A stretch of DNA of 64,000 nucleotides from contig CAYVGJ010000001.1 in assembly GCA_964451165.1 (NCBI GenBank), forward strand, positions 47,071 through 111,070, given 5' to 3'. This document shows, piece after piece, positions 1,049-64,000 of the stretch. Below the pieces are notes generated by a model. That model was given only the letters and a program-made list of their open reading frames with translations, did not search any database and was not told where the DNA came from. The position numbers were made by a program, and so were the translations under genes. Numbering within the stretch: the stretch's first letter is position 1; every line of letters begins with the position of its first letter. The stretch comes from an uncultured bacterium. Lineage in GTDB: Bacteria; Auribacterota; Auribacteria; Auribacterales; Auribacteraceae.

Positions 1049-1100
1049 AGAGATTCCCCGATAAAATAAATGATCTTAAGATCAATTAAGGAGGCAAAAA

Positions 1101-13100: not shown

Positions 13101-16100
13101 ATATACTACAGAATTATGTTTTTAATAATCTGCAACCGGAATTGAGCACTCTTGCCCTGGGAATTCTTATGGAAAAAACCCAGAAATGGGTTAGTGAAGG
13201 CAAAATTTCCATAAATGTGGCTTCAGAAATTGTCACTCAGGTAATAAAGATGTTGGGCCAACTCAGGTATCTTGAACCTAAACAGGCAATTCTCACAGGG
13301 CTTGGCAACTTGGCTAAAGATAAGAAAATCGATTGGCAACTGCGGGCTGTTGCCCTGACACAACTTGAATCTGCTCAATTAGGGCCTGATATAACCGTTT
13401 TGATTACCGCTAAAGAAATTTTTGAAAATATCAATGGATACAGATTGGTTAAAGAACTGTCTAACCTTATTATTCAAGGTAAGCTTGATGATAAATTACC
13501 ATACCTTATGGATAAAATCAAAACTCCTGTGGATCTTGCTGAAATGGGTCTTTCCAGGGTGGATAAAATCAGTATTGAAACCGCTATCGATATATATCGG
13601 CAAAACACGAAGCCAGGTATTATATTTGAGCTGAAAACAATACCAACAATAGAAGATTTGAAAATGTTGGCGGATCTTCCTTTTGAAGTTCTTGTCCTTC
13701 GTGAAAGGGATTCACATAAATTTTATATAGTAAGCGGTGACGAAACATCAGTCAATACGCAGGTACTTCGTTATTTGAGTGCAGTAGGAAAAGTTGATCT
13801 GGCAATCCATAACCATCCCGAACAAGATATAACCAGACCAAGTGATACGGATATTGTTTATGGAGCGAAAAATACCGAGAATAATTACATTATCGGTAAA
13901 AAAGGTATGGCTAAATTTAATCAGGTAACTCATATGCCACCTTTTATGACTCCGGTACGGATAAACGATATGAGTGATTTTCTTTCCTTAGTAGAAACAT
14001 GGTTGAGCATGAAAGGCGAACCGAATCCGACAGATATTATGACACACCTGTTAATGTTCCGGGATTTCGGAGTGGATTATAAATTCGAGTATTGGGAAGA
14101 TATCGATTTCAATAAAATACTTTCTTCATCCAACCCGGTAAACAGTTTAATAATCAATCAGAAACCTTCATTACAAGGCATAGGGATAACAAGTATTGCA
14201 AACTCCTCATATCCGAATTTAATTAATGCGATAGGAGCATTGAAAATAATCGAGGGAAGCTCAATAAACAGTAATGTCAAATTTGTTAATGAGTTATCGC
14301 AAGCCGCCAGATCGAATTTTTACGATCAGATGAATAACCTGCGGGATGTTTTTGAATATAAATTCGGACTTATCAACAAATGGTTGTATAGCAATCAGGG
14401 TTATTTCCTGGACACAATTGCGTTAGAGCTCGGTAAACAAGATCAGGCAACCGCTGTTATCTCAGCCATTCATGATTTCGATATCATTTTAAACAAATTC
14501 AAAGTTCCTGATATTGACAATATTTATAATGCTAACGTTTTTTTAGATCAATTGAAATCGACAGTACCTAAGTTGCTGGTTACGTTGAATACTATCTCAG
14601 CTAATTTGGAAGAATTGCTGATAGATTTAAGTTCATCTAATCCCAAAGAGTACATAAAATTGCTTGAATTCAACAGGCGGCTTGAAAACGCTATCGATAT
14701 ATCTGCGTTCATGATGAATATTCTTGCTCCTTCGGTTAATAATGCGTCTTCAATGCCTTTATCTGAATCATCATTTAATGATCCGGCTAAGAAAAAAGAA
14801 GTTATATCTGCGGATTATGTTCCTCCAATGGATTTGGTGCCAGATTATATCCCGTTACCTGTGTATTCCGCTCAGAAAGATTTCAAAAACCATTATAATG
14901 CGGTAGCCGATTTCATATTGAATGCCAACAAAATGCTGGAGTCTTCGAATTCGTTTGAGCGGAGGTTAAACGAGCTGGTGTTTCTGTTCTATGAAACAGG
15001 AGTATACAGGGCGTTTCAGGATAATACGGTCAATCCGTTTGAGTTACTCATGTTTTTAAATTTAAGTTCATCGGAGAAAATATTGATTCAGATGCTCAGC
15101 ACTATCAACGGTGATGGTCAACTAAACAGGTTCTTTGAATCGCTGAATTTTACCGCTGAACAGAAAGAAACAGTTCATTTCTTCTTAAATGTAATAACAC
15201 ATGGCGTGATATCCGCCATACCTTCTCGACCGATCATTGAAATGCGGTGGCAAACACTTATACGGCCTGAACTTGTGCTTGACGGTAATCCTTTATCCGG
15301 CGAGCTAACAAAAGACGGAGCGAAGGGGATTGCCGCAATTACGCGAAAAATAGACATGGATTCTAAAGATGTTGAAATTACTGTGAACGGAAAAAAGATT
15401 TTTCTTCGGACGGAATCGAGAATTATCAGCGAACTTGGTTTTACCGGTGAAACAGCTGTTGCGGATTTCGCGAAATTCGTTAAGGAAGGCATTGATGGCA
15501 GGGGTGAATACCTTTTTTCCGGATTGGTTGAAGGCGAAACGCTGTATATTGGTGTTGTGGATGCATCTGCGACTTTGTTTGCGGATCATATAGACGACGG
15601 GTTTATCGGAATCAACCGCGGGTTTTTTGCCATGCTGGATAAAAAATTCCAGAAACCGGCTTTTCTTGTCGGATTGACTCACGAGTTGCGCCATGAAGCG
15701 GGAGTTTACCGCAACACAGTATTGGTTGAGGATACTCCATCAGTTGAAAAAATACTTACCGATGAGGATGTAGAGTTTACCAAAACACTAATACCTGATC
15801 TTAAAGGTTTTGCGCAATCCCTGTCACTGATTGTTGGCGAGAATGCCGATATTGATGTTCCGGATTATCTCCGTCAGATCAAAAGAGAAATTATTACCGC
15901 TGAAGCTCCGCCGGCAAAACAACCTGTAACTCTGGAAAAGCCCTTAACTCAATCGGAAATTATTGCTGAGTTTGCTAAACCGATGTCTACTCCATTATTC
16001 TGGGATATCCTCAACGAAATAAATGCTATGTTTAAGATAGATGGAAATATTGATATTGGGATTCTTGATAAGTATACGCAGTCCGCTGCGGCAAACCCTC

Positions 16101-19100
16101 TTGTTAGCAAAAAGATAGCGAACTTGATAGCAATATCAATGACAGCCAGGTTGGAGGTTCCTGTTTCAGAAAGAGGAAGGTTAAACCAGCTTATCTCGTC
16201 TACTTTGGATCTGGGGGGCGTGGATTTGACGGAACAAATTTATACAGCACTCAAATCCCAGCCGATTGATTATTTGAGCTCAATAGCCAATAAGAACCAT
16301 TATAATGGCAAGACAGCTCGTGTTTATGGTACTGAAATACCGGTTGTACTGCTAAATACGGTAGATTTGTTTAGAAAACGGATTGTTGAGAAGTTATTTA
16401 TGGATGAGAACCTGAAACCGCGCGATTTATACCGGGATTTAAGAAAAGTTCTGTATGGAGAAAATATCACGGAATCAGCCAGATCCGAAATGATTAAAAC
16501 AGCGTCCAAACTTCTTAAAACCCTAACCCCTGACGGGGTTCCGGTTGTAAAGGATTCGGTGGATAAAGCCAAAATGTTTTATCTTCTTATAACCAGGTAT
16601 AACAATAAAGAACTGGTTATGCCAGAACTCAGCAAACTGCCGAAATTTAAAAATATCATCCGAAGAGTCGTTTTAGGTAAAATAAATTTCAGAAATGTAC
16701 CGCGCAACCTTGCTCCGGGTGCGATTCAGTTAATTCTGTTAAGACTCCAACAGATGGTACAGCAAGGAGAAATGAATACCGAACAGGCATCGCGAATAAT
16801 TTTTCTGTTGGGAAACCATTACAGAAAAAGCAATTTTATAGATCAGAAAAAGAGTATACTTGAAGGGTTTGGGAAACTCGCGGCGAATAAGTCTATATCT
16901 CCGGCTTTACGGGCGATATCGTTAATATATATCGAATCTGCTCAGACCGGAGATGATATCTCAACCAGGGGAATCGCTACGGAAATATTCGCTGAAATAA
17001 AAGGGTATAGTTTAATGAAATCTTTAACCGGCAAGATAGAAACTAATCTTGCTCAGGTAATTGAGTCTATGGGCGCCAAACCTTATCTTGCGGATGATAT
17101 CCTTCTGGATGTTGATAAAGTACCTTTCGATTTCGCGCTTGAAACATTTAAAGCCATAAGAACAAAATGTACCTGTTTTGAGCTCGAATCGGCTCCAACG
17201 CTGTCTCAATTGCGGATGCTCTCCGATCTTGATTTCGAAACCCACTTGCTACACGACAAATTAACAGGTAAATATTATATCATAAATGGCGAGCAGTCAA
17301 CCATAAGGACTGTTATAACATCCATATTTGCGCAAACAGGGCGTGTGGATATATCCATTCATAACCACCCCTCTTTTGTGCCTGAGCAGGAAGCTATTCG
17401 CCCAAGCGCATCGGATATGGTATCTGCGCGTCTCAGTGTGCACAATTTTATTATTACCAAAACAGGAATTGTAAGATTCGGATCGCCTAAAATCAAGCCA
17501 AGTACCGGTAAAAACCATGTTTATCAAACAACTAAAGAGCTTGAGATGGAAAGGGATAAATGGATAGCGAAAATAGGCGCCGAGAATGCCACATGGGATA
17601 ATTATAACCGTACGTTCGGAATGGATATGGAAATTAGCGCTTGGAAAGATATTGCCGAATCACAAACCGTCGATCAATTCGCCGCTTCGTTTGCGACTCA
17701 AATGCCTGATACAGAAATTTTGGCTCTCGGTATATCGAGATTTAATCAGATGATGTATATGTTCGATAAAATTCAGAATCTCAATCAAATCGTCAGCTCA
17801 GGCGATGAAATAAGATCACAATCCGCGTCAGACGTGATACTTAGGTTTAATAGTTTATTTAATGAGTTCCAGTCGGTTGTTAAATTTAAAGCTACTGCTA
17901 TATCTGCCTGGCTAAAGGATGAATCGGGTTTTATTAAAGGTCAGTTGAGTATTTCTGACCCGTCAGCCGCTACCAATATTTTACGGAAATTAACGCAGAT
18001 TGAACAACTTCTGGATTCGATAAAAACAAAAGATGTTCGTGATCTGCAAAATGCCCGGGTACAAATATCGGATATTCTTAGCGTTTTATCCGAGACACAT
18101 AGAATAATGTTTGATATTACGCGCGATTTAAACCAATTGATGGCCCAGCTTCAAAGTATCGATCCCAAACAGTACCGTCTTGTTTCTGATTTTCGGATTC
18201 ATATGAAAAAAGCTATCGCTGAAATCAATAATATGAGAAAAATTCTGGAATACTCGGGTATAAAACCTTCCCTTGAGATCATAACTCAGGAAGACGATTT
18301 GTTTGCCAAACCCGATAGATTGTCTCTTGATTCGATACTTGGTTCGGCAAATATTGATTTGACTCAGATTGTGAAAGATTTACGGGATATAAAAACAGAT
18401 AAGACGCAGTACCCACAGATTTCAGTGGTTACCCGTAAAATATCAGCTATCGATACTGAATTGCCGTTCAATATAAAGGTAATGCAAATAGGCGCAGCGC
18501 TTGTGGATACCGGAGTTGCCGACCTGATCCGCAAAGGAAAAGCGGATTTGTTTGAGCTTGTTTCACAACCGAATTTCTTGCCGCGGGAACAGCGGATATT
18601 CACTGATTTGCGAAATACACAAACGGAAAAAGAATTTATCGACGTCATAAAAAAACACAGGATGACTTTTAATGAAGTGAAAGAAATCAAACGCCTATTT
18701 GAATTTACTCCCGGTGGAATACCAAAAGGCATATCGTCAGGAGTAATGCGGTTTCAGGCTTATATCAGGCCCGATATAAAGGTTGGCAAACAAAAAGTAG
18801 CCGGCAAATTGTCGAAAAACGGGTTTACCGATCTTGATAATATAAAAAAGGAGATTGCGAAAGATTCGAGTACGGTTGTTGTTTCGGTTGCCGGAAAGAA
18901 CATTAATATTGCCGTAGAGAATGAAATCCTCAAAAGGTTAGGGTTTACTTCGGAAAACCGGGTCGCTGAATTTTCGGAGTTTTTGAGATCGGCGTTAGTT
19001 ATTCGTGGCGAAACCCTTTTTTCAGGATTAACAGGCGGAGAAACCATACATCTTGGTATTGCCGATACTTCAGATACATTGTTTGTCGACCATAACGACA

Positions 19101-53875: not shown

Positions 53876-54265
53876 ATGGGGAAATTAGCGTATATTTCTA
53901 TTCTTGTTTTATTTATGTCTTTAAATGCATATTGCGCGGAAATTAGTATTCCAAAAGAAGAAGTCGCTGAAGGTTCAAAAATTACCGATACGGAAGAGAA
54001 ATTAGGATGGGCATCCGATAAATTTATGCGTGGAATTACAAATATTCTGACCGGATGGATGGAAGTACCTAAACATATCGGTGAGAAATCAAAAACAGAA
54101 GGCCCTTTAGCAGGTAGTACCGCCGGTTTATCGTCCGGATTTACGTGGATGCTGCTTCGCACAGGCGCCGGTATCTGGGATGCGGCAACATTTCCCGGTT
54201 CATTGATTATACCTGACGAAAAACCGGTAATTGACCCTCCAACTGTATTTGAGAAAGGTGAATAG
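53876..54265 (+). CDS. Putative exosortase-associated protein, TIGR04073-like
   Basis: Signal peptide, KFMRGITNILTGWMEVPK, G..AG...G....LRTGAGIWDAATFP; AGGAG SD. Confidence 0.7.
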   Translation: MGKLAYISILVLFMSLNAYCAEISIPKEEVAEGSKITDTEEKLGWASDKFMRGITNILTGWMEVPKHIGEKSKTEGPLAGSTAGLSSGFTWMLLRTGAGIWDAATFPGSLIIPDEKPVIDPPTVFEKGE

Positions 54266-54298: not shown

Positions 54299-54328
54299 AT
54301 CCCGCTAAAAAAAAGCGGGGTTTTTTTT
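54299..54328 (+). terminator. Rho-independent terminator
   Basis: CCCGCT / AGCGGG stem followed by T8. Confidence 0.8.
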
Positions 54329-54357: not shown

Positions 54358-54385
54358 TAAAGTTTTATAAAAGTTGTGCCGATAC
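54358..54385 (+). promoter_or_regulatory. Sigma-28 (FliA/SigD)-type promoter upstream of the flagellin array
   Basis: TAAAGTTT (54358-54365), 12 nt, GCCGATAC (54378-54385); the consensus is TAAAGTTT-N11-GCCGATAA. Confidence 0.65.
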
Positions 54386-54427
54386 TATTTGGTGTAACAG
54401 GAAAAAAGGATTTAAAAAAGTTCAATA

Positions 54428-54652
54428 TTCAACAGGGAAGTTGAACCCAAAATCAATCAGGGAGGATTGAAAAATGGTTACTGATCAAAAAATGTATTAC
54501 CGTAAAAAATAGTAAATTTTTGAACGGTGATTTTCTGTCTTTTTATAAAATTTAACAAATGAATCAATAAATTAATTAATTATATATAGCGCAATAACTA
54601 TGTAAAACCGGCAGACAAGGATGTTTACCGGAGAAATTATCAAGGAGGATAA
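54428..54652 (+). promoter_or_regulatory. Four CsrA/RsmA-type GGA-loop hairpins in the leader of flagellin 1 (the last overlaps the SD)
   Basis: TTCAAC-agggaa-GTTGAA, TCAATC-agggag-GATTGA, ..GAC-aaggat-GTT.., TTATC-aaggag-GATAA; all match (A/U)CANGGANG(U/A). Confidence 0.7.
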
Positions 54653-54654
54653 AA

Positions 54655-55464
54655 ATGGGCGACTTATCAAGAATCAATACCAATGTAACCGCATTGCGGT
54701 CTTTCCAGACATTAACCAACATAAATTCACGGCTTGTTAAAACACAAGAGAGAATTTCTACCGGCCGGATGGTCAACAGGGCATCGGATAGTCCATCAGA
54801 TTATTATATTACCAGAATGATGAGTAAAGAAATCGACGCTACGAAACGGAAAAACGCTAATATCGAGCGCGGTATTAATTTCCTGCAGACAAACGATAGT
54901 CGCCTTGCGCAGGTTGTGAACATATTGATCGAGATGAGTGATATGGCAAACCAGGCGAACTCAATCGCAGTGACTTCAGCCGAAAAACAGGCAATTCAGC
55001 AGGATTTACAACAATTATCGCATGAAATCGAAAATATCCTTGAAAGTGGTGTTTCCGTGAAATTGTACAGTGGATTTACACTTGCGGGGTTGACCAACGT
55101 AAAGCTGACAGGCAATCTGTGTATCAATCCTCTGCAGACACTTACTATAGATGGTACAAATATTAACGTAACTGGTTCTCTAACGGATATAGATAACGCG
55201 ATAAGCAATATAAATAAAGCACTGGATGTGGTTTTGCGCGATGAAGAGAGGCTTGGTTCATACATAAAAAGGCTGGATACCGAGTATCAGCTAAATGAGA
55301 ATGAGGAAATAAACCTTCGCGCATCGCTAAGTTCCATTCAGGATTCGGATCTGGCGGCGGAACAAATGGAACTGACAAACCTGTCGATACTGCAACAGGC
55401 GGCTTTATCAATGCTTGCTCAGGCAAACAGCGCGCCGAACGCGATTATGGTTCTGTTCCAATAA
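54655..55464 (+). CDS. fliC: Flagellin 1 (minimal D0/D1 flagellin, 269 aa)
   Basis: RINTNV N-terminus, ISTG..VNRASD, IQDSDLA...LT..SILQQA..SMLAQAN C-terminus. Confidence 0.9.
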   Translation: MGDLSRINTNVTALRSFQTLTNINSRLVKTQERISTGRMVNRASDSPSDYYITRMMSKEIDATKRKNANIERGINFLQTNDSRLAQVVNILIEMSDMANQANSIAVTSAEKQAIQQDLQQLSHEIENILESGVSVKLYSGFTLAGLTNVKLTGNLCINPLQTLTIDGTNINVTGSLTDIDNAISNINKALDVVLRDEERLGSYIKRLDTEYQLNENEEINLRASLSSIQDSDLAAEQMELTNLSILQQAALSMLAQANSAPNAIMVLFQ

Positions 55465-55608
55465 TAAACAAAAGCGGACAGGGATAGTTCGCTCAAACCT
55501 TAACAGGGAGGTAGTTAAAGATGTACCTTGAAAACACTTGAGATCTGAATTAAAGATTTTGAGCGGAATCTATCCCGAAAAACAATACGAATTAAACAAA
55601 CAGAAAAA

Positions 55609-55792
55609 CCGCGAACAGGGAAGTTCTCGGGAAAATTAAAACAGGGAGGTTATCATGAAGTGGATCAAATTATGAATTTATAAAATGAACCCGGTTTAAT
55701 AAAAATAGATAAAAAAGTTAGTAAATTAAGCCATAATATGATTGTTGTCAGGGAAGACGGCAATTGAGAAATTAACAAAATCAAGGAGGATT
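55609..55792 (+). promoter_or_regulatory. CsrA-type GGA-loop hairpins upstream of flagellin 2
   Basis: ACAGGGAAGT (55615), ACAGGGAGGT (55641), TCAGGGAAGA (55748, 9-bp stem), TCAAGGAGGA (55781, SD); another site at 55503. Confidence 0.7.
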
Positions 55793-55797
55793 TAAAA

Positions 55798-56607
55798 ATG
55801 GGTGATCTATCAAGAATAAACACTAATGTATCGGCTTTAAGAAGTTTTCAAACTTTAACAAATATTAATACGAGGCTTGTAAAGAGCCAGGAACAAATAT
55901 CTACCGGTAAAGTTGTCAACAGGGCATCGGATAGTCCATCGGATTATTATATAACGCGAATGCTGGACACAAATATAAATTCGGTAAAACGGCAGAATTC
56001 AAATATTGAGCGCGGTATAAATTTTCTGCAGACCAACGACAGCCGTCTTGCCCAGGTAGCCAATATCCTGATTGAGATGAGTGATCTAGCCAATCAATCG
56101 AATTCAATAGCGGTTACGTCGGCTGAGAAACAAGCTATACAACAGGATCTAACCCAACTTGCTGAAGAAATCGAAGCGATTTTGCAAAGCGGTGTAAGCG
56201 CCAAACTTTATGCCGGATTTACTTTGGGCGGTTTAGAGAACGTAAAACTTACAGGGAACCTAACCGCTAATCCGCTGGGTAGTTTATCCTTGAATGGGAC
56301 AAACCTGAATGTTACCGGCTCGATGGTGGATATAGAAACAACCATAATGAATATTGATTCCGCATTGAATGTAATATTGCGCGATGAGGAACGGCTTGGA
56401 TCCTTTATAAAAAGGCTTGAGACTGAATATCAGATGAACGATGTGGAGGAAGTCAATTTGCGAGCATCTTTAAGCTCAATTCAGGATACCGACCTGGCAT
56501 CCGAGCAGATGGAATTGACTAAGCTGTCAATACTTCAGCAGGCATCGTTATCGATGTTGGCTCAGGCAAACTCCGCGCCGCAATCGGTAATGCAATTGTT
56601 CTCATAA
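55798..56607 (+). CDS. fliC: Flagellin 2 (269 aa)
   Basis: Same flagellin termini; paralog of flagellin 1. Confidence 0.9.
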   Translation: MGDLSRINTNVSALRSFQTLTNINTRLVKSQEQISTGKVVNRASDSPSDYYITRMLDTNINSVKRQNSNIERGINFLQTNDSRLAQVANILIEMSDLANQSNSIAVTSAEKQAIQQDLTQLAEEIEAILQSGVSAKLYAGFTLGGLENVKLTGNLTANPLGSLSLNGTNLNVTGSMVDIETTIMNIDSALNVILRDEERLGSFIKRLETEYQMNDVEEVNLRASLSSIQDTDLASEQMELTKLSILQQASLSMLAQANSAPQSVMQLFS

Positions 56608-56839
56608 GATTAGTTAGGAAAATTTGATGAGTGAAATTCACCAGAATAAGGCAAAGATAAAAATTGATAGCAAAAGTTGAATTAAACAAATAAGGCAAGA
56701 TTAAATGAACATAAAAGAAAGACCAAACAGGAGGATCATGAAAGAGTATCAACGAAGAGAAAATTAGTCTAAACAGGGAAAGTTAAAACTATAACGCAAC
56801 AAAAAAATGATCAATGTTAAAACCATGGAGGGAAAAAAC

Positions 56840-57649
56840 ATGGGTGATTTAGCGAGAATAAATACTAATGTGGCGGCTTTACGAAGTTTTCAGACACTGA
56901 CAAATATTAATACGCGATTGGTTACTGTACAGGAACATATATCAACCGGTAAGACTGTAAACAGAGCTTCCGATAGCCCGTCGGATTACTATATATCGAG
57001 AATGCTTGAGCGGGATATCAATTCGCTCAAACGCAAAAATGACAATATTGAGCGGGGTATAAATTATCTGCAGACCAACGACAGCCGGCTTGCTCAGGTA
57101 GCCAACATCCTGATTGAGATGAGCGATATGGCAAACCAGGCAAACTCGCTCGCGGTAACATCCGCTGAAAAACAGGCGATTCAACAGGACCTTGATCAGC
57201 TTAAATCTGAGATTGAGGCGATTCTGCAGAGCGGTGTAAGTCAGAAATTATATACCGGATTTACCCTTGGAGGACTGAAAAACGTAAAACTTACTGGTAA
57301 CCTTGTCCTGAATCCACTTGCGAACTTGACTCTAAACGGGACAAACATAAATGTAACAGGTAGCCAGACAGTACTTGACACAACGATACGGAATATCGAC
57401 AAAGCGCTTGATGTAGTCCTGCGCGATGAGGAACGGCTCGGCTCGTTTATACGCAGGCTGGAAGTGGAATCTGAAGTGAACGATGTTGAGGGAGTTAACC
57501 AGAAAGCCTCATTAAGTTCGATTCAGGATGCGGATTTGGCTGAAGAACAGCTCGAATACACAAAACTGAACATACTGCAACAGACATCTATGGCGATGAT
57601 GGCTCAGGCTAACACTGCACCGCAATCGATAATGCAGTTGTTCGGGTAA
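56840..57649 (+). CDS. fliC: Flagellin 3 (269 aa)
   Basis: Start moved to the ATG at 56840 (MGDLAR) by alignment with paralogs and the GGAGG SD. Confidence 0.9.
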   Translation: MGDLARINTNVAALRSFQTLTNINTRLVTVQEHISTGKTVNRASDSPSDYYISRMLERDINSLKRKNDNIERGINYLQTNDSRLAQVANILIEMSDMANQANSLAVTSAEKQAIQQDLDQLKSEIEAILQSGVSQKLYTGFTLGGLKNVKLTGNLVLNPLANLTLNGTNINVTGSQTVLDTTIRNIDKALDVVLRDEERLGSFIRRLEVESEVNDVEGVNQKASLSSIQDADLAEEQLEYTKLNILQQTSMAMMAQANTAPQSIMQLFG

Positions 57650-57664
57650 TATAAAAAATTTATG

Positions 57665-57705
57665 GTTGCGGCTGGTGGATAGTTTATACATCCTTCGGCC
57701 GCAAC
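57665..57705 (+). other. Long GC-rich hairpin after flagellin 3 (copy at 58741-58781), no U-tract
   Basis: GTTGCGGC / GCCGCAAC outer stem with an inner GGAT / ATCC stem. Confidence 0.5.
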
Positions 57706-57915
57706 GGAGAACGATGATGAAACTGTAAAAGTATTATATAACTACAAATTCGATGGATACTTGGAAAGGAATGGTGACTACTGATTGAGAATATGTGTGT
57801 ATAAAAGAAAATCTGTTTGGATTGGGAAAAATATAAAGGCTTAAATGATGATTGTGTAAACATCTTAAAATAAAATAATTATAAAAACAGATAAACATAT
57901 TTAAGGAGAAAACAA

Positions 57916-58725
57916 ATGGGTGATTTAGCAAGAGTTAATACTAATGTGTCTGCGTTGAGGTCGTTTCAAACCTTAACCGGGATTAACAACAGGCTTGTAA
58001 AAACACAGGAAGCGATTTCAACAGGCAAAGTCGTCAACAGAGCTTCCGATGCGCCGTCGGATTACTATATTTCAAGGATGTTGGAGAAGGATATTAACTC
58101 ATTGAAACGCAAAAACGACAACATCGAACGCGGTATCAATTTCCTGCAGACCAACGACAGCCGGCTCGCTCAGGTAGCCAACATCCTTATTGAGATGAGC
58201 GATATGGCGAACCAGGCGAATTCCATTGCTGTAACCTCAGCCGAGAAACAGGCTATCCAGCAGGATATAGATCAGTTGAAGATGGAAATCGAGAATATTC
58301 TTCATAGCGGTGTCAGCGCGAAATTGTATTCCGGGTTTACTCTTGGCGGGCTTGAGAACGTAAAACTTACAGGTAACCTCATAACCAATCCGCTTGGAAG
58401 TTTAACTCTTGACGGGACAAATCTGAATGTAACCGGAAGCCAGACAACCCTTGAGACAACGATACGGAATATCGACAAAGCGCTTGATATAGTCCTGCGC
58501 GATGAGGAACGGCTCGGCTCGTTTATCCGCAGGCTGGAAGTGGAATCGGAAGTAAACGATGTTGAGGGAGTTAACCAGAAAGCGTCATTAAGCTCGATTC
58601 AGGACGCGGATCTGGCTGAACAACAACTGGAATACACAAAACTGAGCATACTTCAACAAACATCTATGGCGATGATGGCTCAGGCTAACACTGCACCACA
58701 ATCGATAATGCAGTTGTTCGGGTAA
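57916..58725 (+). CDS. fliC: Flagellin 4 (269 aa)
   Basis: Flagellin termini; protein identical to flagellin 5. Confidence 0.9.
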   Translation: MGDLARVNTNVSALRSFQTLTGINNRLVKTQEAISTGKVVNRASDAPSDYYISRMLEKDINSLKRKNDNIERGINFLQTNDSRLAQVANILIEMSDMANQANSIAVTSAEKQAIQQDIDQLKMEIENILHSGVSAKLYSGFTLGGLENVKLTGNLITNPLGSLTLDGTNLNVTGSQTTLETTIRNIDKALDIVLRDEERLGSFIRRLEVESEVNDVEGVNQKASLSSIQDADLAEQQLEYTKLSILQQTSMAMMAQANTAPQSIMQLFG

Positions 58726-58991
58726 TATAAAAAATTTATGGTTGCGGCTGGTGGATAGTTTATACATCCTTCGGCCGCAACGGAGAACGATGATGAAACT
58801 GTAAAAGTATTATATAACTACAAATTCGATGGATACTTGGAAAGGAATGGTGACTACTGATTGAGAATATGTGTGTATAAAAGAAAATCTGTTTGGATTG
58901 GGAAAAATATAAAGGCTTAAATGATGATTGTGTAAACATCTTAAAATAAAATAATTATAAAAACAGATAAACATATTTAAGGAGAAAACAA

Positions 58992-59801
58992 ATGGGTGAT
59001 TTAGCAAGAGTTAATACTAATGTGTCTGCGTTGAGGTCGTTTCAAACCTTAACCGGGATTAACAACAGGCTTGTAAAAACACAGGAAGCGATTTCAACAG
59101 GCAAAGTCGTCAACAGAGCTTCCGATGCGCCGTCGGATTACTATATTTCAAGGATGTTGGAGAAGGATATTAACTCATTGAAACGCAAAAACGACAACAT
59201 CGAACGCGGTATCAATTTCCTGCAGACCAACGACAGCCGGCTCGCTCAGGTAGCCAACATCCTTATTGAGATGAGCGATATGGCGAACCAGGCGAATTCC
59301 ATTGCTGTAACCTCAGCCGAGAAACAGGCTATCCAGCAGGATATAGATCAGTTGAAGATGGAAATCGAGAATATTCTTCATAGCGGTGTCAGCGCGAAAT
59401 TGTATTCCGGGTTTACTCTTGGCGGGCTTGAGAACGTAAAACTTACAGGTAACCTCATAACCAATCCGCTTGGAAGTTTAACTCTTGACGGGACAAATCT
59501 GAATGTAACCGGAAGCCAGACAACCCTTGAGACAACGATACGGAATATCGACAAAGCGCTTGATATAGTCCTGCGCGATGAGGAACGGCTCGGCTCGTTT
59601 ATCCGCAGGCTGGAAGTGGAATCGGAAGTAAACGATGTTGAGGGAGTTAACCAGAAAGCGTCATTAAGCTCGATTCAGGACGCGGATCTGGCTGAACAAC
59701 AACTGGAATACACAAAACTGAGCATACTTCAACAAACATCTATGGCGATGATGGCTCAGGCTAACACTGCACCGCAATCAATAATGCAGTTGTTCGGTTA
59801 A
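58992..59801 (+). CDS. fliC: Flagellin 5 (269 aa)
   Basis: Flagellin termini; protein identical to flagellin 4. Confidence 0.88.
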   Translation: MGDLARVNTNVSALRSFQTLTGINNRLVKTQEAISTGKVVNRASDAPSDYYISRMLEKDINSLKRKNDNIERGINFLQTNDSRLAQVANILIEMSDMANQANSIAVTSAEKQAIQQDIDQLKMEIENILHSGVSAKLYSGFTLGGLENVKLTGNLITNPLGSLTLDGTNLNVTGSQTTLETTIRNIDKALDIVLRDEERLGSFIRRLEVESEVNDVEGVNQKASLSSIQDADLAEQQLEYTKLSILQQTSMAMMAQANTAPQSIMQLFG

Positions 59802-60046
59802 TTAAAACGCTTTTATGGAAGGGTTGGCTAATATGAAATTTGAATATGGTTTATGAAAAAAAGAGTGTTTGAATGTTATTGGATAATAAACAAAAGAAAA
59901 AGAATTAGAAACACCGAAAGGAGGAATTTTACACAAATTTAAATTAAAAAAAGAACCGGATTCAATATAAACATTGATTTATATAAGCCCTAAGGCTGTT
60001 TGCATGGAAGCAAACGAGGCGAAAAAACAAACAAGGAGGAATTAAA

Positions 60047-60856
60047 ATGGGTGATTTAGCAAGAGTAAACACAAACGTTGCTGCGTTGAGAGGTTTTCAA
60101 ACATTAACCAGTATCAATAACCGTCTGGTTAAAAGTCAGGAAGCTATATCGACGGGTAAAGTCGTAAACAGAGCATCAGATAGTCCGTCCGATTATTACA
60201 TATCGCGGACATTACAGAGAGATATCAACTCGCTTAAACGCAAAAACGACAACATTGAGCGCGGTGTGAATTTCCTGCAGACCAACGATAGCCGGTTGGC
60301 GCAGGTAGCCAATATCCTGATTGAGATGAGCGATATGGCAAACCAGGCAAACTCAATAGCTGTGACGTCGGCTGAGAAACAGGCAATCCAGCAGGATATT
60401 CAGCAATTGAGTATGGAGATAGAAAACATTCTGCAGAGCGGAGTCAGCGCCAAATTGTACACAGGATTTACGCTTGGCGGGCTAAAGAATGTGAAACTTA
60501 CTGGTAACCTGACTCAAAACGCACTTACAAAGCTGACTCTGGACGGAAATAACCTGAATGTTACAGGAAACCAGACAACACTTGACAGCACAATCAGGAA
60601 TATTGATAAGGCGCTTGATACGGTCTTAAGAGACGAGGAAAGGCTTGGTTCATTCATAAGAAGGTTGGATGTTGAATCAGAGGTGAATGAGGTTGAGGGT
60701 GTCAATCAGAAAGCATCGTTGAGCTCGATTCAGGATGCGGATCTGGCTGAACAACAGTTGGAGTTGACTAAACTAAGTATTCTTCAGCAGACATCTATCG
60801 CGATGCTTGCTCAGGCAAATTCGGCACCGCAATCTGTAATGCAGTTATTCGGATAA
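60047..60856 (+). CDS. fliC: Flagellin 6 (269 aa)
   Basis: Flagellin termini; ACAAGGAGGA SD. Confidence 0.9.
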   Translation: MGDLARVNTNVAALRGFQTLTSINNRLVKSQEAISTGKVVNRASDSPSDYYISRTLQRDINSLKRKNDNIERGVNFLQTNDSRLAQVANILIEMSDMANQANSIAVTSAEKQAIQQDIQQLSMEIENILQSGVSAKLYTGFTLGGLKNVKLTGNLTQNALTKLTLDGNNLNVTGNQTTLDSTIRNIDKALDTVLRDEERLGSFIRRLDVESEVNEVEGVNQKASLSSIQDADLAEQQLELTKLSILQQTSIAMLAQANSAPQSVMQLFG

Positions 60857-61111
60857 TAAAAGGAGGATTAAAATATAACAGTTAGGTTTATTTAAAAACT
60901 CAAACTGAATCAAAATCAAAACTTTGAAAAGGAGGTGATTAGTCCCTTAACGGCAGGATGATTATGTGAAATAAACAAATTCGGTGAACACAATCGATTC
61001 CTTTCGCTGGGGATAAACTGAAATGGACCTTATGAAAAGAGGATTTAATTAGATGAATTATGTATTTGACACGGAAGAAATTTTTCTGAAACAAAACAAG
61101 GAGGATTAACA

Positions 61112-61918
61112 ATGGGTGATTTAGCAAGAGTAAATACTAATGTTGCGGCTTTAAGAGGGTTCCAGACATTAACAAACATAAATAACAGGTTGGTAAAAAG
61201 TCAGGAAGCCATATCTACAGGTAAAATAGTAAACCGCGCATCCGACAGCCCTTCTGATTACTATATCTCGAGGACATTGGAGAGAGATATAAACTCGTTG
61301 CAACGAAAAAACGACAATATCGAACGCGGTATAAATTTCCTGCAAACCAATGATAGCCGTCTCGCTCAGGTAGCGAATATATTGATCGAGATGAGTGATA
61401 TGGCTAACCAGGCAAACTCTATCGCCGTAACATCGGCTGAAAAACAAGCCATCCAGCAGGATTTGAGTCAGTTGAAACTGGAAATCGAAAATATTCTGCA
61501 GAGTGGTGTCAGTGCCAAATTGTACACAGGGTTTACGCTTGGCGGATTGAAAAACGTGAAACTCACAGGTAACCTGACAGCTAACGCGATAACCACACTT
61601 ACTCTGGATGGAAACAACATGAACGTAACCGGAAACCAGGCGACACTTGACGCTACAATAAAAAATATTGATAAAGCGTTGTCGGTTGTATTGAGTGATG
61701 AGGAAAGGTTAGGTTCATTCATCCGCAGATTGGAAGTTGAATCGGATGTGAACGAAGTCGAAGGGTTAAATCAGAAAGCGTCGTTGAGTTCAATTCAGGA
61801 TGCTGATCTTGCGGAACAACAGTTGGAGTTAACAAAACTCAGTATACTCCAGCAAACAAGTATAGCGATGTTGGCTCAGGCAAATTCTGCGCCTCAATCT
61901 GTAATGCAGTTGTTCTAA
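61112..61918 (+). CDS. fliC: Flagellin 7 (268 aa)
   Basis: Flagellin termini; ACAAGGAGGA SD. Confidence 0.9.
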   Translation: MGDLARVNTNVAALRGFQTLTNINNRLVKSQEAISTGKIVNRASDSPSDYYISRTLERDINSLQRKNDNIERGINFLQTNDSRLAQVANILIEMSDMANQANSIAVTSAEKQAIQQDLSQLKLEIENILQSGVSAKLYTGFTLGGLKNVKLTGNLTANAITTLTLDGNNMNVTGNQATLDATIKNIDKALSVVLSDEERLGSFIRRLEVESDVNEVEGLNQKASLSSIQDADLAEQQLELTKLSILQQTSIAMLAQANSAPQSVMQLF

Positions 61919-61943
61919 TAATTGAATTGATATTGCGAATAAA

Positions 61944-61977
61944 TACCGGGAACCGTTACATGATACGGTTCCCGGTA
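61944..61977. other. Perfect 13-bp hairpin after flagellin 7 (terminator or mRNA-stabilising element)
   Basis: TACCGGGAACCGT / ACGGTTCCCGGTA, 8-nt loop; no U-tract on the + strand. Confidence 0.6.
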
Positions 61978-62178
61978 GAAAGAAATTAAAAATGGTTCTG
62001 TTTTACGGTAATAACATTAACATTCTTTTATTAAGGAGGTGCATTATTATGTAATTGATTTTGGTCAGAATGGATATGGATCTGGCGTATTGCGAATCAT
62101 ATCTTTTTCTGATCATGCTGTAAGAAGTATGTATAGTTCGCATGGACGCAAAAAACAAAACACATGGAGGAATTAAAA

Positions 62179-62985
62179 ATGGGTGATTTAGCAAGAGTAA
62201 ACACAAACGTTGCGGCTTTAAGAGGGTTCCAGACATTAACAGGTATAAACAACAGATTGGTAAAAAGTCAGGAAGCCATATCTACAGGTAAAATAGTAAA
62301 CCGCGCTTCAGACAGTCCTTCGGATTATTATATATCAAGGACTTTGGAGAGAGATATTAATTCATTGCAACGAAAAAACGACAATATCGAGCGCGGTATA
62401 AATTTCCTGCAAACCAATGATAGCCGTCTTGCTCAGGTAGCGAATATATTGATCGAGATGAGTGATATGGCTAACCAGGCAAACTCTATCGCCGTAACAT
62501 CGGCTGAAAAACAAGCCATCCAGCAGGATTTGAGTCAGTTGAAACTGGAAATCGAAAATATTCTGCAGAGTGGTGTCAGCGCCAAATTGTATACCGGATT
62601 CACACTTGGCGGATTGAAAAACGTAAAACTCACAGGTAACCTGACAACCAACCCAATAAGCTCGCTGACTCTGGATGGCACTAACCTTAACGTAACCGGT
62701 AATCAGGCATCGCTTGACGCTACAATAAAAAATATAGATACAGCGTTGTCGGTTGTATTGAGTGATGAGGAAAGATTAGGATCGTTTATCCGCAGGCTGG
62801 AGGTTGAATCGGATGTAAATGAAGTCGAGGGATTAAACCAGAAAGCATCATTGAGCTCAATTCAGGATGCGGATCTGGCTGAACAACAGTTGGAGTTGAC
62901 AAAACTCAGCATACTGCAGCAAACCAGTATAGCGATGTTGGCCCAGGCAAATTCAGCTCCGCAATCAGTAATGCAGTTGTTCTAA
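62179..62985 (+). CDS. fliC: Flagellin 8 (268 aa)
   Basis: Start moved to the ATG at 62179 (MGDLAR) after ACATGGAGGA. Confidence 0.9.
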   Translation: MGDLARVNTNVAALRGFQTLTGINNRLVKSQEAISTGKIVNRASDSPSDYYISRTLERDINSLQRKNDNIERGINFLQTNDSRLAQVANILIEMSDMANQANSIAVTSAEKQAIQQDLSQLKLEIENILQSGVSAKLYTGFTLGGLKNVKLTGNLTTNPISSLTLDGTNLNVTGNQASLDATIKNIDTALSVVLSDEERLGSFIRRLEVESDVNEVEGLNQKASLSSIQDADLAEQQLELTKLSILQQTSIAMLAQANSAPQSVMQLF

Positions 62986-62997
62986 TTTAAAAAAGTT

Positions 62998-63028
62998 AAG
63001 GCTGGGCAACATTGTTTTGCCCGGCCTT
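62998..63028. other. 12-bp hairpin after flagellin 8
   Basis: AAGGCTGGGCAA / TTGCCCGGCCTT (one G-U pair); no U-tract on the + strand. Confidence 0.55.
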
Positions 63029-63231
63029 GAGGGGATAAAATTTCTATAAAGGAGGTGATGCCATGACATGATCAAAGTAACATAAACCAAAAAATTTTGA
63101 TAGGAGGTGATGCCGGCTTATCAAATGAGAATGATTAGTTTTAAATTAACATTGCCGGATTGCATTGGATGGTTTAATCCGGCGCAAGGATGCGAATTAA
63201 GGCATTGAAAAAAAACAAGGAGGATTTTTAA

Positions 63232-64000
63232 ATGGGTGATTTAGCAAGAGTAAATACTAACGTTGCCGCATTAAAAGGTTTTCAAACATTAACGGACATA
63301 AACAAAAGACTGGTAAAGTCGCAGGAAGCTATATCGACAGGTAAAACCGTGAATCGCGCTTCCGATAGCCCTTCAGATTACTATATCTCAAGGACTTTGG
63401 ACAGAGATATCAACTCTCTGAAACGCAAAAATGATAATATCGAACGCGGTATAAATTTCCTGCAGACCAACGACAGCCGGCTCGCTCAGGTTGCGAACAT
63501 ATTGATCGAGATGAGCGATATGGCAAACCAGGCTAACAGCATCGCGGTAACATCGGCGGAAAAACAAGCCATCCAGCAGGATTTGGATCAGTTGAAACTG
63601 GAGATTGAAAATATCCTGCAAAGTGGAGTCAGCCAGAAACTCTATACAGGGTTTACACTTGGTGGATTGAAAGACGTGAAATTAACGGGTAATTTAACTT
63701 CAAATTCTTTAACAACTCTTACTCTTAACGGTACAAACTTAAACGTTACCGGGAGTCAGACAACACTCGACTCCACAATAAAAAATATCGATAACGCGTT
63801 GTCTGTTGTTTTGGGAGACGAGGAAAGATTGGGTTCTTTTATCCGTAGGCTGGAGGTTGAATCAGATGTAAATGAAGTTGAGGGGCTGAACCAGAAGGCA
63901 TCATTGAGCTCGATTCAGGATGCGGATCTTGCCGAGCAACAACTTGAGTTGACAAAGCTGAGCATACTACAGCAAACCAGTATAGCGATGCTCGCTCAGG
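63232..64000 (+). CDS. fliC: Flagellin 9, partial (truncated by the window end)
   Basis: Not in the ORF track. Manual translation gives MGDLARVNTNVAALKGFQTLTDINKRLVKSQEAISTG... to ...SILQQTSIAMLAQ, open at 64000. Confidence 0.9.
   Translation, partial: MGDLARVNTNVAALKGFQTLTDINKRLVKSQEAISTGKTVNRASDSPSDYYISRTLDRDINSLKRKNDNIERGINFLQTNDSRLAQVANILIEMSDMANQANSIAVTSAEKQAIQQDLDQLKLEIENILQSGVSQKLYTGFTLGGLKDVKLTGNLTSNSLTTLTLNGTNLNVTGSQTTLDSTIKNIDNALSVVLGDEERLGSFIRRLEVESDVNEVEGLNQKASLSSIQDADLAEQQLELTKLSILQQTSIAMLAQ

Follow-up and report, generated by a model that had tools for sequence, protein, structure and literature searches.

Nine-gene array spacers in an uncultured member of the Auribacterota probably carry two-site translational operators of the CsrA type that control flagellin synthesis. 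The array lies in a window of 64,000 nt, which is the whole stretch of DNA analysed. Each operator would comprise an upstream hairpin whose hexaloop, closed by C-G, displays A-N-GGA-N and, 19-43 nt downstream, a c-ANGGAG-g site that is the Shine-Dalgarno (SD) sequence itself. A CsrA dimer would dock on the hairpin, bridge to the SD and block 30S ribosome binding, and the FliW-flagellin partner switch would lift this block while flagellin is exported. The preliminary description had called the motif CsrA-type, and both its sequence and its two-site geometry match a CsrA operator, in which one GGA occupies a hairpin loop and a second overlaps the SD. Flagellin is the ancestral CsrA-FliW target, which is consistent with the presence of operators on flagellin genes.

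Organization of the array and its leader sites

The features of the array are collected in Table 1; the starts of genes 2-9 were read off the sequence and agree with tblastn starts. Gene 9, cut by the window end, is complete in L001, where it encodes 268 aa and is the final gene of the array. A tandem duplication holds genes 4 and 5; its two copies, 57623-58697 and 58699-59773, agree at all 1,075 nt, and contigs assembled from short reads of the same organism break off there.

Table 1. Flagellin genes, leader sites and associated modules, in window coordinates
Feature	Position	Strand	Description
Sigma-28 (FliA)-type promoter	54358-54384	+	TAAAGTTTTATAAAAGTTGTGCCGATA; array head
Head stub module	54428-54512	+	two hairpins, SD, ATG and short ORF; dG -14, z -2.69
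Stub upstream hairpin	54428-54445	+	ttcaac-AGGGAA-gttgaa
Stub SD hairpin	54453-54470	+	tcaatc-AGGGAG-gattga
Stub ORF	54474-54512	+	ATG at 54474; 12 codons, MVTDQKMYYRKK and stop
Gene 1 upstream hairpin	54608-54631	+	ccgg-c-agac-AAGGAT-gttt-a-ccgg; folding z -2.80 for the whole operator
Gene 1 SD hairpin	54637-54652	+	ttatc-AAGGAG-gataa
Flagellin gene 1	54655-55464	+	269 aa, early clade
Decoy module 2a	55473-55541	+	z -2.71; hairpin agcggac-AGGGATA-gttcgct; SD CAGGGAGG 55504-55511; ATG 55521; ORF MYLENT and stop
Decoy module 2b	55609-55675	+	by folding; paralogue of 2a; hairpin gaac-AGGGAA-gttc with outer extension; SD CAGGGAGG 55642-55649; ATG 55655; ORF MKWIKL and stop
Gene 2 upstream hairpin	55739-55766	+	11 bp, AGGGAA loop; for the whole operator, z -3.75 and 0/200 shuffles fold as well
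Gene 2 SD hairpin	55778-55793	+	aaatc-AAGGAG-gattt
Flagellin gene 2	55798-56607	+	269 aa, early clade
Spacer 2-3	56727-56831	+	structure not significant; degenerate decoy: AGGAGGA, ATG 56738, ORF MKEYQRREN and stop; weak AGGGAA motif 56775
Gene 3 SD	56824-56831	+	CATGGAGG
Flagellin gene 3	56840-57649	+	269 aa; upstream hairpin degenerate or absent
Flagellin genes 4 and 5	57916-59801	+	57916-58725 and 58992-59801; leaders without upstream hairpin
Gene 6 upstream hairpin	59997-60016	+	7 bp, tgtttgc-ATGGAA-gcaaacg; z -2.15
Gene 6 open SD	60032-60039	+	CAAGGAGG
Flagellin gene 6	60047-60856	+	
Gene 7 leader and gene	61070-61918	+	coding sequence 61112-61918
Gene 7 upstream motif	61070	+	CACGGAAG; without stable hexaloop
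Gene 7 SD	61097	+	CAAGGAGG
Gene 8 leader and gene	62141-62985	+	coding sequence 62179-62985
Gene 8 upstream motif	62141	+	CATGGACG; stem of 2 bp only
Gene 8 SD	62163	+	CATGGAGG
Gene 9 leader and gene	63183-64000	+	coding sequence from 63232, cut by window end
Gene 9 small hairpin	63183-63194	+	cgc-AAGGAT-gcg; 3-bp stem
Gene 9 SD	63216	+	CAAGGAGG

Exact matches to CANGGANG number 30 on both strands of the window, against 18.3 ± 4.0 expected from shuffles, and 20 of them lie on the + strand of the array between 54433 and 63223. The nine flagellin spacers, 2,430 nt in total, hold 18 of these 20; the other two (58073 and 59149) fall within the coding sequences of genes 4 and 5. The motif is thus enriched and strand-biased, bearing out the earlier report of site-rich spacers, with 18 of the window's 30 matches in 2.4 kb. 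Strict counts ahead of genes 1-9 are 4, 5, 1, 0, 0, 2, 2, 2 and 2. The preliminary description gave the same series except for a single site at gene 7, having overlooked the one at 61070; its sites are real, with most positions one base too low (54432 for 54433, and so on). It had also placed many sites in hexaloops of complementary stems, which is true of roughly half. ANGGAN hexaloops with at least four contiguous closing pairs lie at 54434, 54459, 54617, 54642, 55617, 55750, 55783 and 60004. Eight hairpin-presented hexaloops in 2.4 kb of spacer, versus 17 in the ~125 kb of strand length that remains, amount to a ~24-fold enrichment.

Folding identified two-hairpin modules (z -2.7 to -3.75) at the head stub, gene 1, decoy 2a and gene 2, and one upstream hairpin in the gene 6 leader, while the leaders of genes 3, 4/5, 7 and 8 displayed no significant structure (z +0.44 for the unstructured gene 4/5 leader). 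In a covariance-model search the seven top window matches were all on the + strand of the array and the best match outside it scored 15.9 bits (E 0.3), a partly circular result, as nine of the model's training sequences were drawn from these same spacers. Some leaders argue against the operator reading: genes 7 and 8 lack a stable hexaloop for their upstream motif, that of gene 9 sits on a 3-bp stem, and four loose ANGGA motifs persist in each of the gene 4 and gene 5 spacers. Raw GGA counts are alike in all spacers (6-11), and "zero sites" for genes 4 and 5 is valid for the strict or hairpin-presented form only.

As previously stated, the SD is itself a site in every gene but 4 and 5, which carry TAAGGAGA instead (57902-57909 and 58978-58985). 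This pattern is non-trivial in this genome, since an CANGGAGG SD precedes none of the ~37 other window genes, most of whose SDs are weak or absent.

Conservation of the two-site leader

Eight related loci share the architecture of the array; they come from genomes and metagenomes of Auribacterota, Ca. Auribacter fodinae among them. Across eight loci of the phylum the c-ANGGAN-g hexaloop motif is present in 42 of 53 flagellin leaders, 19-43 nt upstream of an CANGGAGG SD; this intersite distance falls inside the 10-63 nt that a CsrA dimer can bridge (PMC7652899). When 49 leaders are aligned, the paired fraction of cells is 78.8% versus 50.4% after shuffling, and the stem covariation score is 0.725 versus 0.212 for shuffled alignments (0/500 reach 0.725) and 0.15-0.20 for slid controls. 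Double changes occur in all eight stem pairs, the loop GGA never varies and 45 of the 49 close with C-G. The leader consensus ACANGGAUG equals the CsrA SELEX consensus RUACARGGAUGU, a hexaloop with AC/GU pairing (PMC7652899). Of 53 genes, 46 have the SD octamer CANGGAGG, in which every base is accepted at N (A 25, T 9, G 6, C 6), as expected of CA-N-GGA and not of an extended anti-SD complement. The SD flanks tend to be lost where the upstream site is lost (6/11 versus 1/42, Fisher p = 1.3e-4, approximate because paralogues and orthologues are not independent). Between the window and the sister species L016, modules are 67-91% identical, the rest of the spacer about 61% and third codon positions 49-57%. 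The gene 1 operator reaches 91%, and L005, L006 and L007 hold its orthologous hairpin, GGTAAAC-AAGGAT-GTTTAC. Judged from these alignments, the motif is a conserved RNA element, beyond a merely strong SD, and binding of the leaders by CsrA is strongly suggested.

Leader classes are kept by position on the flagellin tree across the Auribacterota. The head stub, behind the only sigma-28 promoter, is followed by two flagellins of the early clade, each with its two sites presented in hairpins, then by one to three flagellins without an upstream hairpin and often with a degraded SD-flank motif (here genes 3-5), and last by distal flagellins, whose SD is open and whose leader has an upstream hairpin motif. 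Across the phylum the gene-specific pattern noticed earlier is conserved, and the hairpin-less class, genes 4 and 5 included, tends to lose the C...G flanks of the SD. For leaders of this class (here genes 3-5), little or no CsrA binding is predicted.

We consider it unlikely that CsrA plays no part, the SDs being strong for very high expression and the hairpins serving as mRNA-stabilizing or processing stem-loops whose GGA loops are at most ribosome standby sites. Only the head sigma-28 promoter is recognisable, so the array may be transcribed as an operon and then processed, with the spacer hairpins contributing to RNA stability, and A/T-rich -10-like hexamers 5-15 nt upstream of many hairpins would place these at transcript 5' ends. 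However, a stabilizer needs a stem and not a loop, and here the stems vary freely while A-N-GGA and the C-G closure are fixed in 45-49 of 49 leaders. With just GGA in common with the anti-SD complement, the loops would serve poorly as standby sites; the SD core is flanked by a C and an A that are conserved though not complementary to the 16S 3' end, with N free; and both sites are lost together.

The absence of csrA from the ~230 kb searched also favors that explanation: tblastn and Pfam on small ORFs detected neither csrA nor fliW in the window, the 10 kb on each side of it or the flanks of any related array, and a CsrA HMM, applied to the sequences other than L015-L017, had no match either. 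The gene is present in only about 30% of bacterial genomes (PMC13443453). With csrA still putative in this lineage, the loops might be read by another trans-acting factor, either a small RNA or an RNA-binding protein (FlbT/FlaF-like, or the divergent flagellin-like paralogue of L005 and L007), which we regard as quite improbable. Multi-flagellin control in Caulobacter runs through FlbT/FlaF and not CsrA, and a flagellin-derived protein, highly divergent and with a two-site leader of its own, is encoded in some related arrays. Against this, the consensus fits the CsrA SELEX site position by position (PMC7652899), FlbT/FlaF have no Pfam match in 20 neighboring ORFs scanned, the divergent paralogue is missing from the window, and a complementary small RNA is not evident.

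The head stub and the additional modules

The sigma-28 promoter follows the terminator of the upstream gene (54301-54327) and is the array's sole match to TAAA-N14-17-CCGAT[AT] in a conserved TTTCGC/G context. The same element occupies this place in L005, L006, L007, L008, L011, L015 and L016, and no per-gene promoter is recognisable elsewhere in the array. A stub module lies behind this promoter at the array head in all eight distinct related arrays, with hairpins and AAAATG kept in eight arrays, one compensatory change and no conservation of the peptide. The stub, 85% identical to that of L016 versus 49-57% at third codon positions, probably makes up the 5' portion of the sigma-28 transcript and could serve as a cis decoy or titrator or, alternatively, as a CsrA-controlled upstream ORF gating downstream expression.

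The four and five sites ahead of genes 1 and 2 had been read as a graded dose, yet they do not form bigger operators. The surplus sites belong to the stub and to another pair of stub-like decoys, separate and complete two-site modules of hairpin, SD, ATG and mini-ORF, each with its own ATG and an ORF of 6-12 codons. Decoy 2a is 84% conserved in L016 with a different peptide; decoy 2b, which matches 2a over 41 nt (76%), is also conserved there, with a stem mismatch repaired and an ORF of the same length but other sequence (MNRNKT and stop). It is quite unlikely that stub and decoys are functionless relics, 5' ends of deleted flagellin genes, and the high counts debris of array turnover. Every decoy does begin like a flagellin gene, with hairpin, SD and ATG, and then runs into junk, turnover is real (a truncated flagellin remnant in L011, the exact 1,075-nt duplication in the window), and the spacer 2-3 decoy is degenerate and not conserved in L016, where the gene 3 SD is the one part of that spacer retained. 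Yet the stub keeps its place in 8/8 distinct arrays, with hairpins, SD and ATG nearly invariant while flanks and peptide diverge; identity to L016 is 78-85% for stub, 2a and 2b versus 49-57% at synonymous sites; and in L016 the 2b stem is repaired and its ORF length retained.

Comparison with known systems

Caulobacter crescentus controls its multiple flagellins translationally through FlbT/FlaF. As probably here, several flagellin paralogues are regulated post-transcriptionally via 5' leaders in a manner coupled to assembly; the proteins and RNA determinants are different, with no GGA hexaloop consensus, and FlbT/FlaF were not seen among the 20 ORFs scanned with Pfam. The CsrB/CsrC/RsmX/Y/Z sponges, to which the leaders had been likened, also have clustered GGA hairpins, here two or three per stub and three tandem modules before gene 2. 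That reading is not supported: the array's modules have far fewer sites (just two or three GGA hairpins each), an SD and ATG on every module, no Rfam match, no consistent terminator, and a sigma-28 promoter rather than GacA/UvrY dependence.

In Escherichia coli, CsrA controls iraD via a short upstream ORF encoding a leader peptide (PMC5574718), with CsrA sites on the SD of that ORF and the peptide irrelevant, as proposed for the stub, and at the pgaA leader it promotes Rho termination (PMC7652899). These precedents offer a possible route for stub gating of downstream expression. Unlike in iraD, the stub ORF stops 100-250 nt short of flagellin 1, making direct translational coupling impossible; any effect through polarity or Rho would be pure conjecture.

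The flaA leader of Campylobacter jejuni contains two GGA stem-loops, CsrA binds it with a Kd of ~50 nM versus >350 nM for flaB, and flaA mRNA titrates CsrA (Dugar 2016, PMC4894983). Paralogous flagellin leaders thus differ in CsrA affinity, as predicted here from sequence, which provides a precedent for the "dose" and "sponge" ideas alike. The proposal that genes 4 and 5 encode the major flagellin is a guess that runs opposite to this analogy, as in Campylobacter CsrA targets the major flagellin most strongly and the minor one less so (PMC4894983); a translational "stoichiometry code" for the filament is likewise speculative. In C. jejuni, moreover, two genes are under different sigma factors, whereas here an array of 9-13 genes has position-conserved classes, and titration would fall to a separate stub or upstream ORF and not to the major flagellin leader.

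The hag leader of Bacillus subtilis and its CsrA-FliW-Hag partner switch were reportedly described by Yakhnin in 2007 and Mukherjee in 2011. This two-site leader with its FliW switch (PMC7652899, PMC6529632) shares with the array a sigma-28/sigma-D promoter, a flagellin target, and a hairpin-loop GGA with a second GGA overlapping the SD, a layout that the head stub reproduces almost exactly. Unlike B. subtilis, with its one flagellin gene, the array has nine or more, three leader classes, a sigma-28 promoter on the head stub only, a stub ORF of 12 codons, and csrA and fliW that are putative in the lineage. The gene-specific patterns of conserved hairpins, together with their conserved decoy copies, suggest adaptation of a known feedback switch on flagellin to a filament of many flagellins.

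The flagellin array and the motifs in its spacers

The nine co-oriented flagellin genes at the 3' end of the plus strand encode proteins of 268–269 aa with Flagellin_N and Flagellin_C domains; gene 9 is truncated by the window end, but contigs from the same organism carry it whole and show that it ends the array. Compared with flagellins from other Auribacterota genomes, among them Candidatus Auribacter fodinae SURF_26, they show 73–79% identity, and every relative with a sufficiently long contig has its flagellins in a tandem array, with a gene number of at least 8 to 13 or more. The paper describing the phylum mentions flagella in SURF_26 and is silent on flagellar regulation (PMC9324843).

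The preliminary description had reported GGA motifs in the flagellin spacers. This observation is confirmed: 30 exact CANGGANG matches are present in the window against 18.3 ± 4.0 expected, 20 of them on the plus strand of the array, and 18 of these 20 lie within the 2,430 nt of spacers. The list of sites given there was correct overall, apart from one-base offsets and the omission of one site (61070); strict counts before genes 1 to 9 are 4, 5, 1, 0, 0, 2, 2, 2 and 2. A motif-enrichment check gave the same picture for hairpin-borne sites, as ANGGAN hexaloops on at least 4 contiguous pairs number 8 in the 2.4 kb of spacers and 17 in the ~125 kb of other strand length, a density ~24-fold higher in the spacers than in the rest of the window. 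The CANGGAGG Shine-Dalgarno (SD) sequence is found in none of ~37 other window genes, most of which have weak SDs, and is not background in this genome. SDs are mostly weak or absent at these ~37 non-flagellin starts and near-perfect AAGGAGG is essentially restricted to the flagellin array and its decoys (see below), which suggests that the organism makes low general use of the SD.

Several features of the array and the window were observed along the way (table). Genes 4 and 5 are identical, the result of an exact tandem duplication whose copies agree over 1,075 nt and whose unit runs from the 3' end of a flagellin gene across the spacer into the following gene, most of which it covers; since short-read contigs L001 and L002 of the same organism begin exactly inside the repeat, its copy number may be uncertain or variable. 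GC-rich stem-loops lacking a U tract stand directly 3' of genes 3, 4, 7 and 8; they might stabilise 3' ends, mark processing sites or serve as non-canonical terminators, which matters for the question of a single operon. A conserved small secreted protein of ~130 aa with the motif GWA..KF.RGITN..TG and no Pfam match is encoded directly upstream of the array in several genomes. Past the window end, 3' of gene 9, are genes for a protein of 103 aa that matches no family and for a membrane protein of 626 aa that weakly matches the PMT_2 glycosyltransferase family; FliD, FliS and FlaG were not recognisable in this region. Elsewhere in the window are a pair of neighbouring HDOD-HD paralogues of 283 and 286 aa, assigned by Pfam, and a giant ORF of 4,825 aa; giant proteins have been reported for PVC-related candidate phyla (PMC12057145).

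Features of the array and of related loci. Positions without a prefix are those of the window; identity is to the sister species (locus L016).
Feature	Position	Strand	Particulars	Identity
Sigma-28-type promoter	54358-54384			
Head stub	54428-54512; ATG 54474	+	ORF MVTDQKMYYRKK*	85%
Gene 1 operator				91%
Decoy 2a	55473-55541; ATG 55521	+	ORF MYLENT*	84%
Decoy 2b	55609-55675; ATG 55655	+	ORF MKWIKL*	78%
Gene 2 operator				67%
Remaining spacer sequence				~61%
Flagellin genes 1-9, true starts	54655, 55798, 56840, 57916, 58992, 60047, 61112, 62179, 63232	+		
Exact tandem duplication	57623-59773		Genes 4 and 5	
GC-rich stem-loops	57666-57710 (repeated 58742-58786), 61944-61977, 62999-63030		After genes 3, 4, 7, 8	
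Third GGA hairpin	L005:9691-9712; L007:8707-8728; L015:1159-1182			
Window counterpart of third hairpin	54410-54425		Two AGGA motifs	
Small secreted protein	53876-54265; L005:9138-9536; L006:8114-8620			
Divergent flagellin paralogue	L005:11923-12660; L007:10937-11686		Third array gene	
Truncated flagellin remnant	L011:1800-2265			
Region 3' of gene 9	L001:5102-7411			
HDOD-HD paralogues	197-1961			
Giant ORF	7196-21673	+		

A two-site operator at the flagellin starts

Folding and a module scan showed that the sites are paired: an upstream hairpin with GGA in its loop is followed, 19–43 nt downstream, by a site embedded in the SD and then by the ATG. Genes 1, 2 and 6 each have a complete pair and gene 9 a weaker one; the same loop-GGA hairpin upstream of an SD is present in a module at the head of the array (the stub) and in two stub-like modules in the gene 2 spacer (decoys 2a and 2b). 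Genes 7 and 8 carry both motifs, the upstream one lying outside any stable hexaloop, the upstream motif of gene 3 is degenerate, and genes 4 and 5 have no upstream motif and TAAGGAGA as their SD. The SD-overlapping GGA site (CANGGAGG) is present in 7 of the 9 genes. The excess sites before genes 1 and 2 are three more complete pairs, namely the stub and the two decoys, each with its own ATG and tiny ORF; a fourth, decayed decoy copy lies in the spacer between genes 2 and 3. The dose of sites per gene that had been proposed from the counts therefore needs recasting as separate decoy modules plus leader classes. The decoys are probably not remnants of flagellin coding sequence, as blastn of the spacers against gene 1 returned chance-level matches only.

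Of 53 flagellin or flagellin-like genes compared from 8 loci, 35 have an upstream ANGGAN hexaloop closed by 4 bp or more, 7 have the motif on a weak stem and 11 lack it. When 49 upstream sites with an 8-bp stem were aligned by their loops without gaps, 78.8% of stem cells are paired compared to 50.4% after shuffling, and double changes occur at all eight stem pairs. The covariation score is 0.725, compared to 0.212 for shuffles (none of 500 reached 0.725) and 0.15–0.20 with the partners slid. The loop is fixed, with GGA and the preceding A invariant (49/49) and a C-G closing pair in 45/49. The column consensus, A-C-A-N-G-G-A-U-G (C 47/49, A 49/49, GGA 49/49, G 46/49, U 26/49), corresponds to that of CsrA/RsmE targets (RUACARGGAUGU, or A/UCANGGANGU/A), and the leader consensus ACANGGAUG is the CsrA SELEX site RUACARGGAUGU, which forms a hexaloop with AC/GU pairing (PMC7652899). 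Spacing between the two sites averages 28 nt, and its 19–43 nt range would be bridgeable by one CsrA dimer, which can span sites 10–63 nt apart (PMC7652899).

At the downstream site, CANGGAGG stands 12–16 nt before the ATG in 46 of the 53 genes, and the site retains C-A-N-GGA-G-G with N free (A 25, T 9, G 6, C 6), a pattern that fits the requirements of a CsrA site and not those of pairing with the 16S 3' end. The flanks of the SD are lost in 6 of the 11 genes without the upstream hairpin versus 1 of the 42 having the motif (p = 1.3e-4, approximate only because the genes are related), and the upstream hairpin and the SD site behave as one unit. In a covariance-model search the seven best matches in the window were all within the array and the best elsewhere had E 0.3, a specificity that is partly circular because nine training sequences come from these spacers.

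Two observations concern gene content in the related arrays. The third gene of the L005 and L007 arrays encodes a divergent flagellin-derived paralogue (MKN[LV]TKVV.RIDEAQA..., ~245–249 aa) that is 27% identical to flagellin (tblastn), has no Pfam match and carries the full two-site leader; it is missing from the window's array and may be a regulatory or specialised flagellin. At L011, a truncated flagellin remnant (ATGGATGATCTGACAAGTGTAAAC..., reading MDDLTSVNASIATLRAFQ...) follows an intact two-site operator in the stretch that separates the stub from the first intact flagellin, and is evidence for gene decay within arrays.

The head stub and the decoy modules

Each array has exactly one sigma-28-type promoter in the conserved context TTTCGC-TAAA-N15/16-GCCGATA, with TAAA-N15/16-GCCGATA kept in 8 arrays, and this promoter precedes the stub, not flagellin 1. 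The stub consists of a hairpin (TTCAAC-AAGGAT-GTTGAA), an SD hairpin (AATC-AAGGAGG-ATTG), AAAATG and an ORF, which ranges from 10 to 32 codons across arrays and is not conserved in sequence; the true flagellin 1 operator follows 100–250 nt after it. A stub-specific pattern scan of metagenomes returned three further loci, two of them distinct, with an identical layout in all. RNAalifold recovered both stub hairpins in 8 sequences, with one compensatory change. Between the window and the sister species, coding sequence is 78–80% identical and third codon positions 49–57%, and the operator, stub and decoy modules are far better preserved than neutral sites (table). In decoy 2b the length of the ORF is the same in both species while its residues have changed (to MNRNKT* in the sister species), and a stem mismatch is repaired in L016. 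These comparisons indicate that the stub and decoys are under selection as RNA plus start codon, not as peptides. In one sublineage a third GGA hairpin (GGAAC-GGGAAA-GTTCC) is found just past the predicted transcription start, where the window has two unstructured AGGA motifs.

CsrB/Rsm sponges are non-coding RNAs with roughly 5–22 GGA hairpins, their own promoter and terminator, and a curated Rfam family. In contrast, the modules here have 2–3 GGA hairpins each and carry an SD and an ATG, and there was no Rfam match at the gathering threshold anywhere in the window. A consistent intrinsic terminator after the stub was not found in the 7 arrays checked, which speaks against a separate small RNA; the earlier suggestion that the site-rich leaders act as CsrB-like sponges is not supported in that form. 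Most simply, the stub is the 5' portion of a sigma-28 transcript that continues into gene 1. Scans for sigma-70 and terminator consensus, sigma-28 and sigma-54 sequences found no clear promoters for individual genes, only the sigma-28 promoter at the head.

Leader classes follow position in the array

In a neighbour-joining tree, genes 1 and 2 of every array form one old clade, all with both hairpins, while the flagellins beyond them group by species. In every species compared, the genes directly after the early clade have no upstream hairpin (window genes 3–5; L005 gene 4; L006 genes 4–5; L007 genes 4–5; L008 genes 2 and 4; L011 gene 2), and distal genes have the upstream hairpin motif and an open SD. 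The preliminary description had set genes 4 and 5 apart from the rest; this difference is real and conserved, because genes at the same position lack the upstream hairpin in every species. The stoichiometry code that it drew from the site counts is not supported as stated. That the leader classes set the relative output of flagellin paralogues is speculative; in Campylobacter the major flagellin is a tight CsrA target and the minor flagellin a loose one (PMC4894983).

Search for csrA and fliW

csrA and fliW were sought in ~84 kb of this genome and ~150 kb of relatives. No csrA was found by tblastn with the E. coli and B. subtilis proteins in these ~230 kb (the window with 10 kb on either side, and DNA flanking the related arrays), nor by an HMM of 120 CsrA sequences against all six-frame ORFs (L015–L017 not included). 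Neither CsrA nor FliW had a Pfam match in 20 ORFs, mostly small and around the arrays, and FliW had none in the Pfam tables of the flanks. In most species csrA and fliW are located with flgK and flgL, not next to flagellin, so their absence from the searched DNA is uninformative. A global CsrA profile search gave 8,000 matches, the best 120 of which are from Bacillus, Geobacillus and relatives, Borreliella and metagenome sequences; the Auribacterota papers with their supplements and a 2026 CsrA survey make no mention of csrA or fliW in Auribacterota. The csrA gene is present in ~30% of bacterial genomes and is common in Planctomycetota (PMC13443453).

A model for control of the array and its relation to known systems

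For most of the flagellin genes the comparison establishes a two-site RNA operator that is conserved, covaries and carries the CsrA consensus; position-specific leader classes and conserved promoter-proximal decoy modules are established as well. The earlier interpretation is supported in part: that the operator is of the CsrA type is very likely; the dose, the stoichiometry code and the CsrB-like sponge do not stand as they were put. We propose that a CsrA homologue probably binds the predicted two-site operator and blocks initiation, and that FliW and flagellin would close the feedback loop. Were csrA absent, a CsrA-like RNA code would be read by another factor, which would be even more surprising.

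Two speculative roles can be envisaged for the stub. As a cis sink for CsrA it would resemble the Campylobacter flaA mRNA, which acts as a CsrA sink (PMC4894983). Alternatively, CsrA could gate its upstream ORF, and translation of that ORF would shield the nascent transcript, a model with part-precedents in the iraD upstream ORF (PMC5574718) and the Rho effect at pgaA (PMC7652899). A broader and doubtful proposal is that the head element is a new cis device that times and doses the whole array. In this view the sigma-28 promoter, a two-site CsrA operator of predicted high affinity, an ATG and a short ORF with an irrelevant peptide form one element. It would act in cis on the timing and amount of array expression, either by drawing off CsrA locally or as an upstream ORF or attenuator under CsrA control. 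The leader classes (two hairpins, none, one) would then share translation among paralogues at different filament positions, and gene 2 would be tuned specifically by the tandemly amplified copies of the device that precede it in this genus. In a limited literature search, no description was found, for flagellin loci, of a conserved promoter-proximal decoy such as the sigma-28 stub with a non-conserved upstream ORF.

Feedback through CsrA, FliW and flagellin is considered the original function of CsrA and, to our knowledge, work on it has been confined to bacteria that have one or two flagellins. The present comparison extends the RNA signature of this feedback to an uncultured candidate phylum within the PVC group and offers a natural series of ~50 covarying operators and three conserved leader classes, in arrays with a flagellin number of at least 8 to 13 or more. 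This compact natural set of putative CsrA sites would be useful for affinity-tuning studies and, if the proposed mechanism is true, provides a testable model of post-transcriptional control over the relative synthesis of many flagellin paralogues. The feedback is known in Bacillus, Campylobacter, Clostridioides and Helicobacter (PMC6529632, PMC4894983, PMC8523840, PMC11905337), and the flagellin operators are probably a variation on this known CsrA system in an unstudied phylum.
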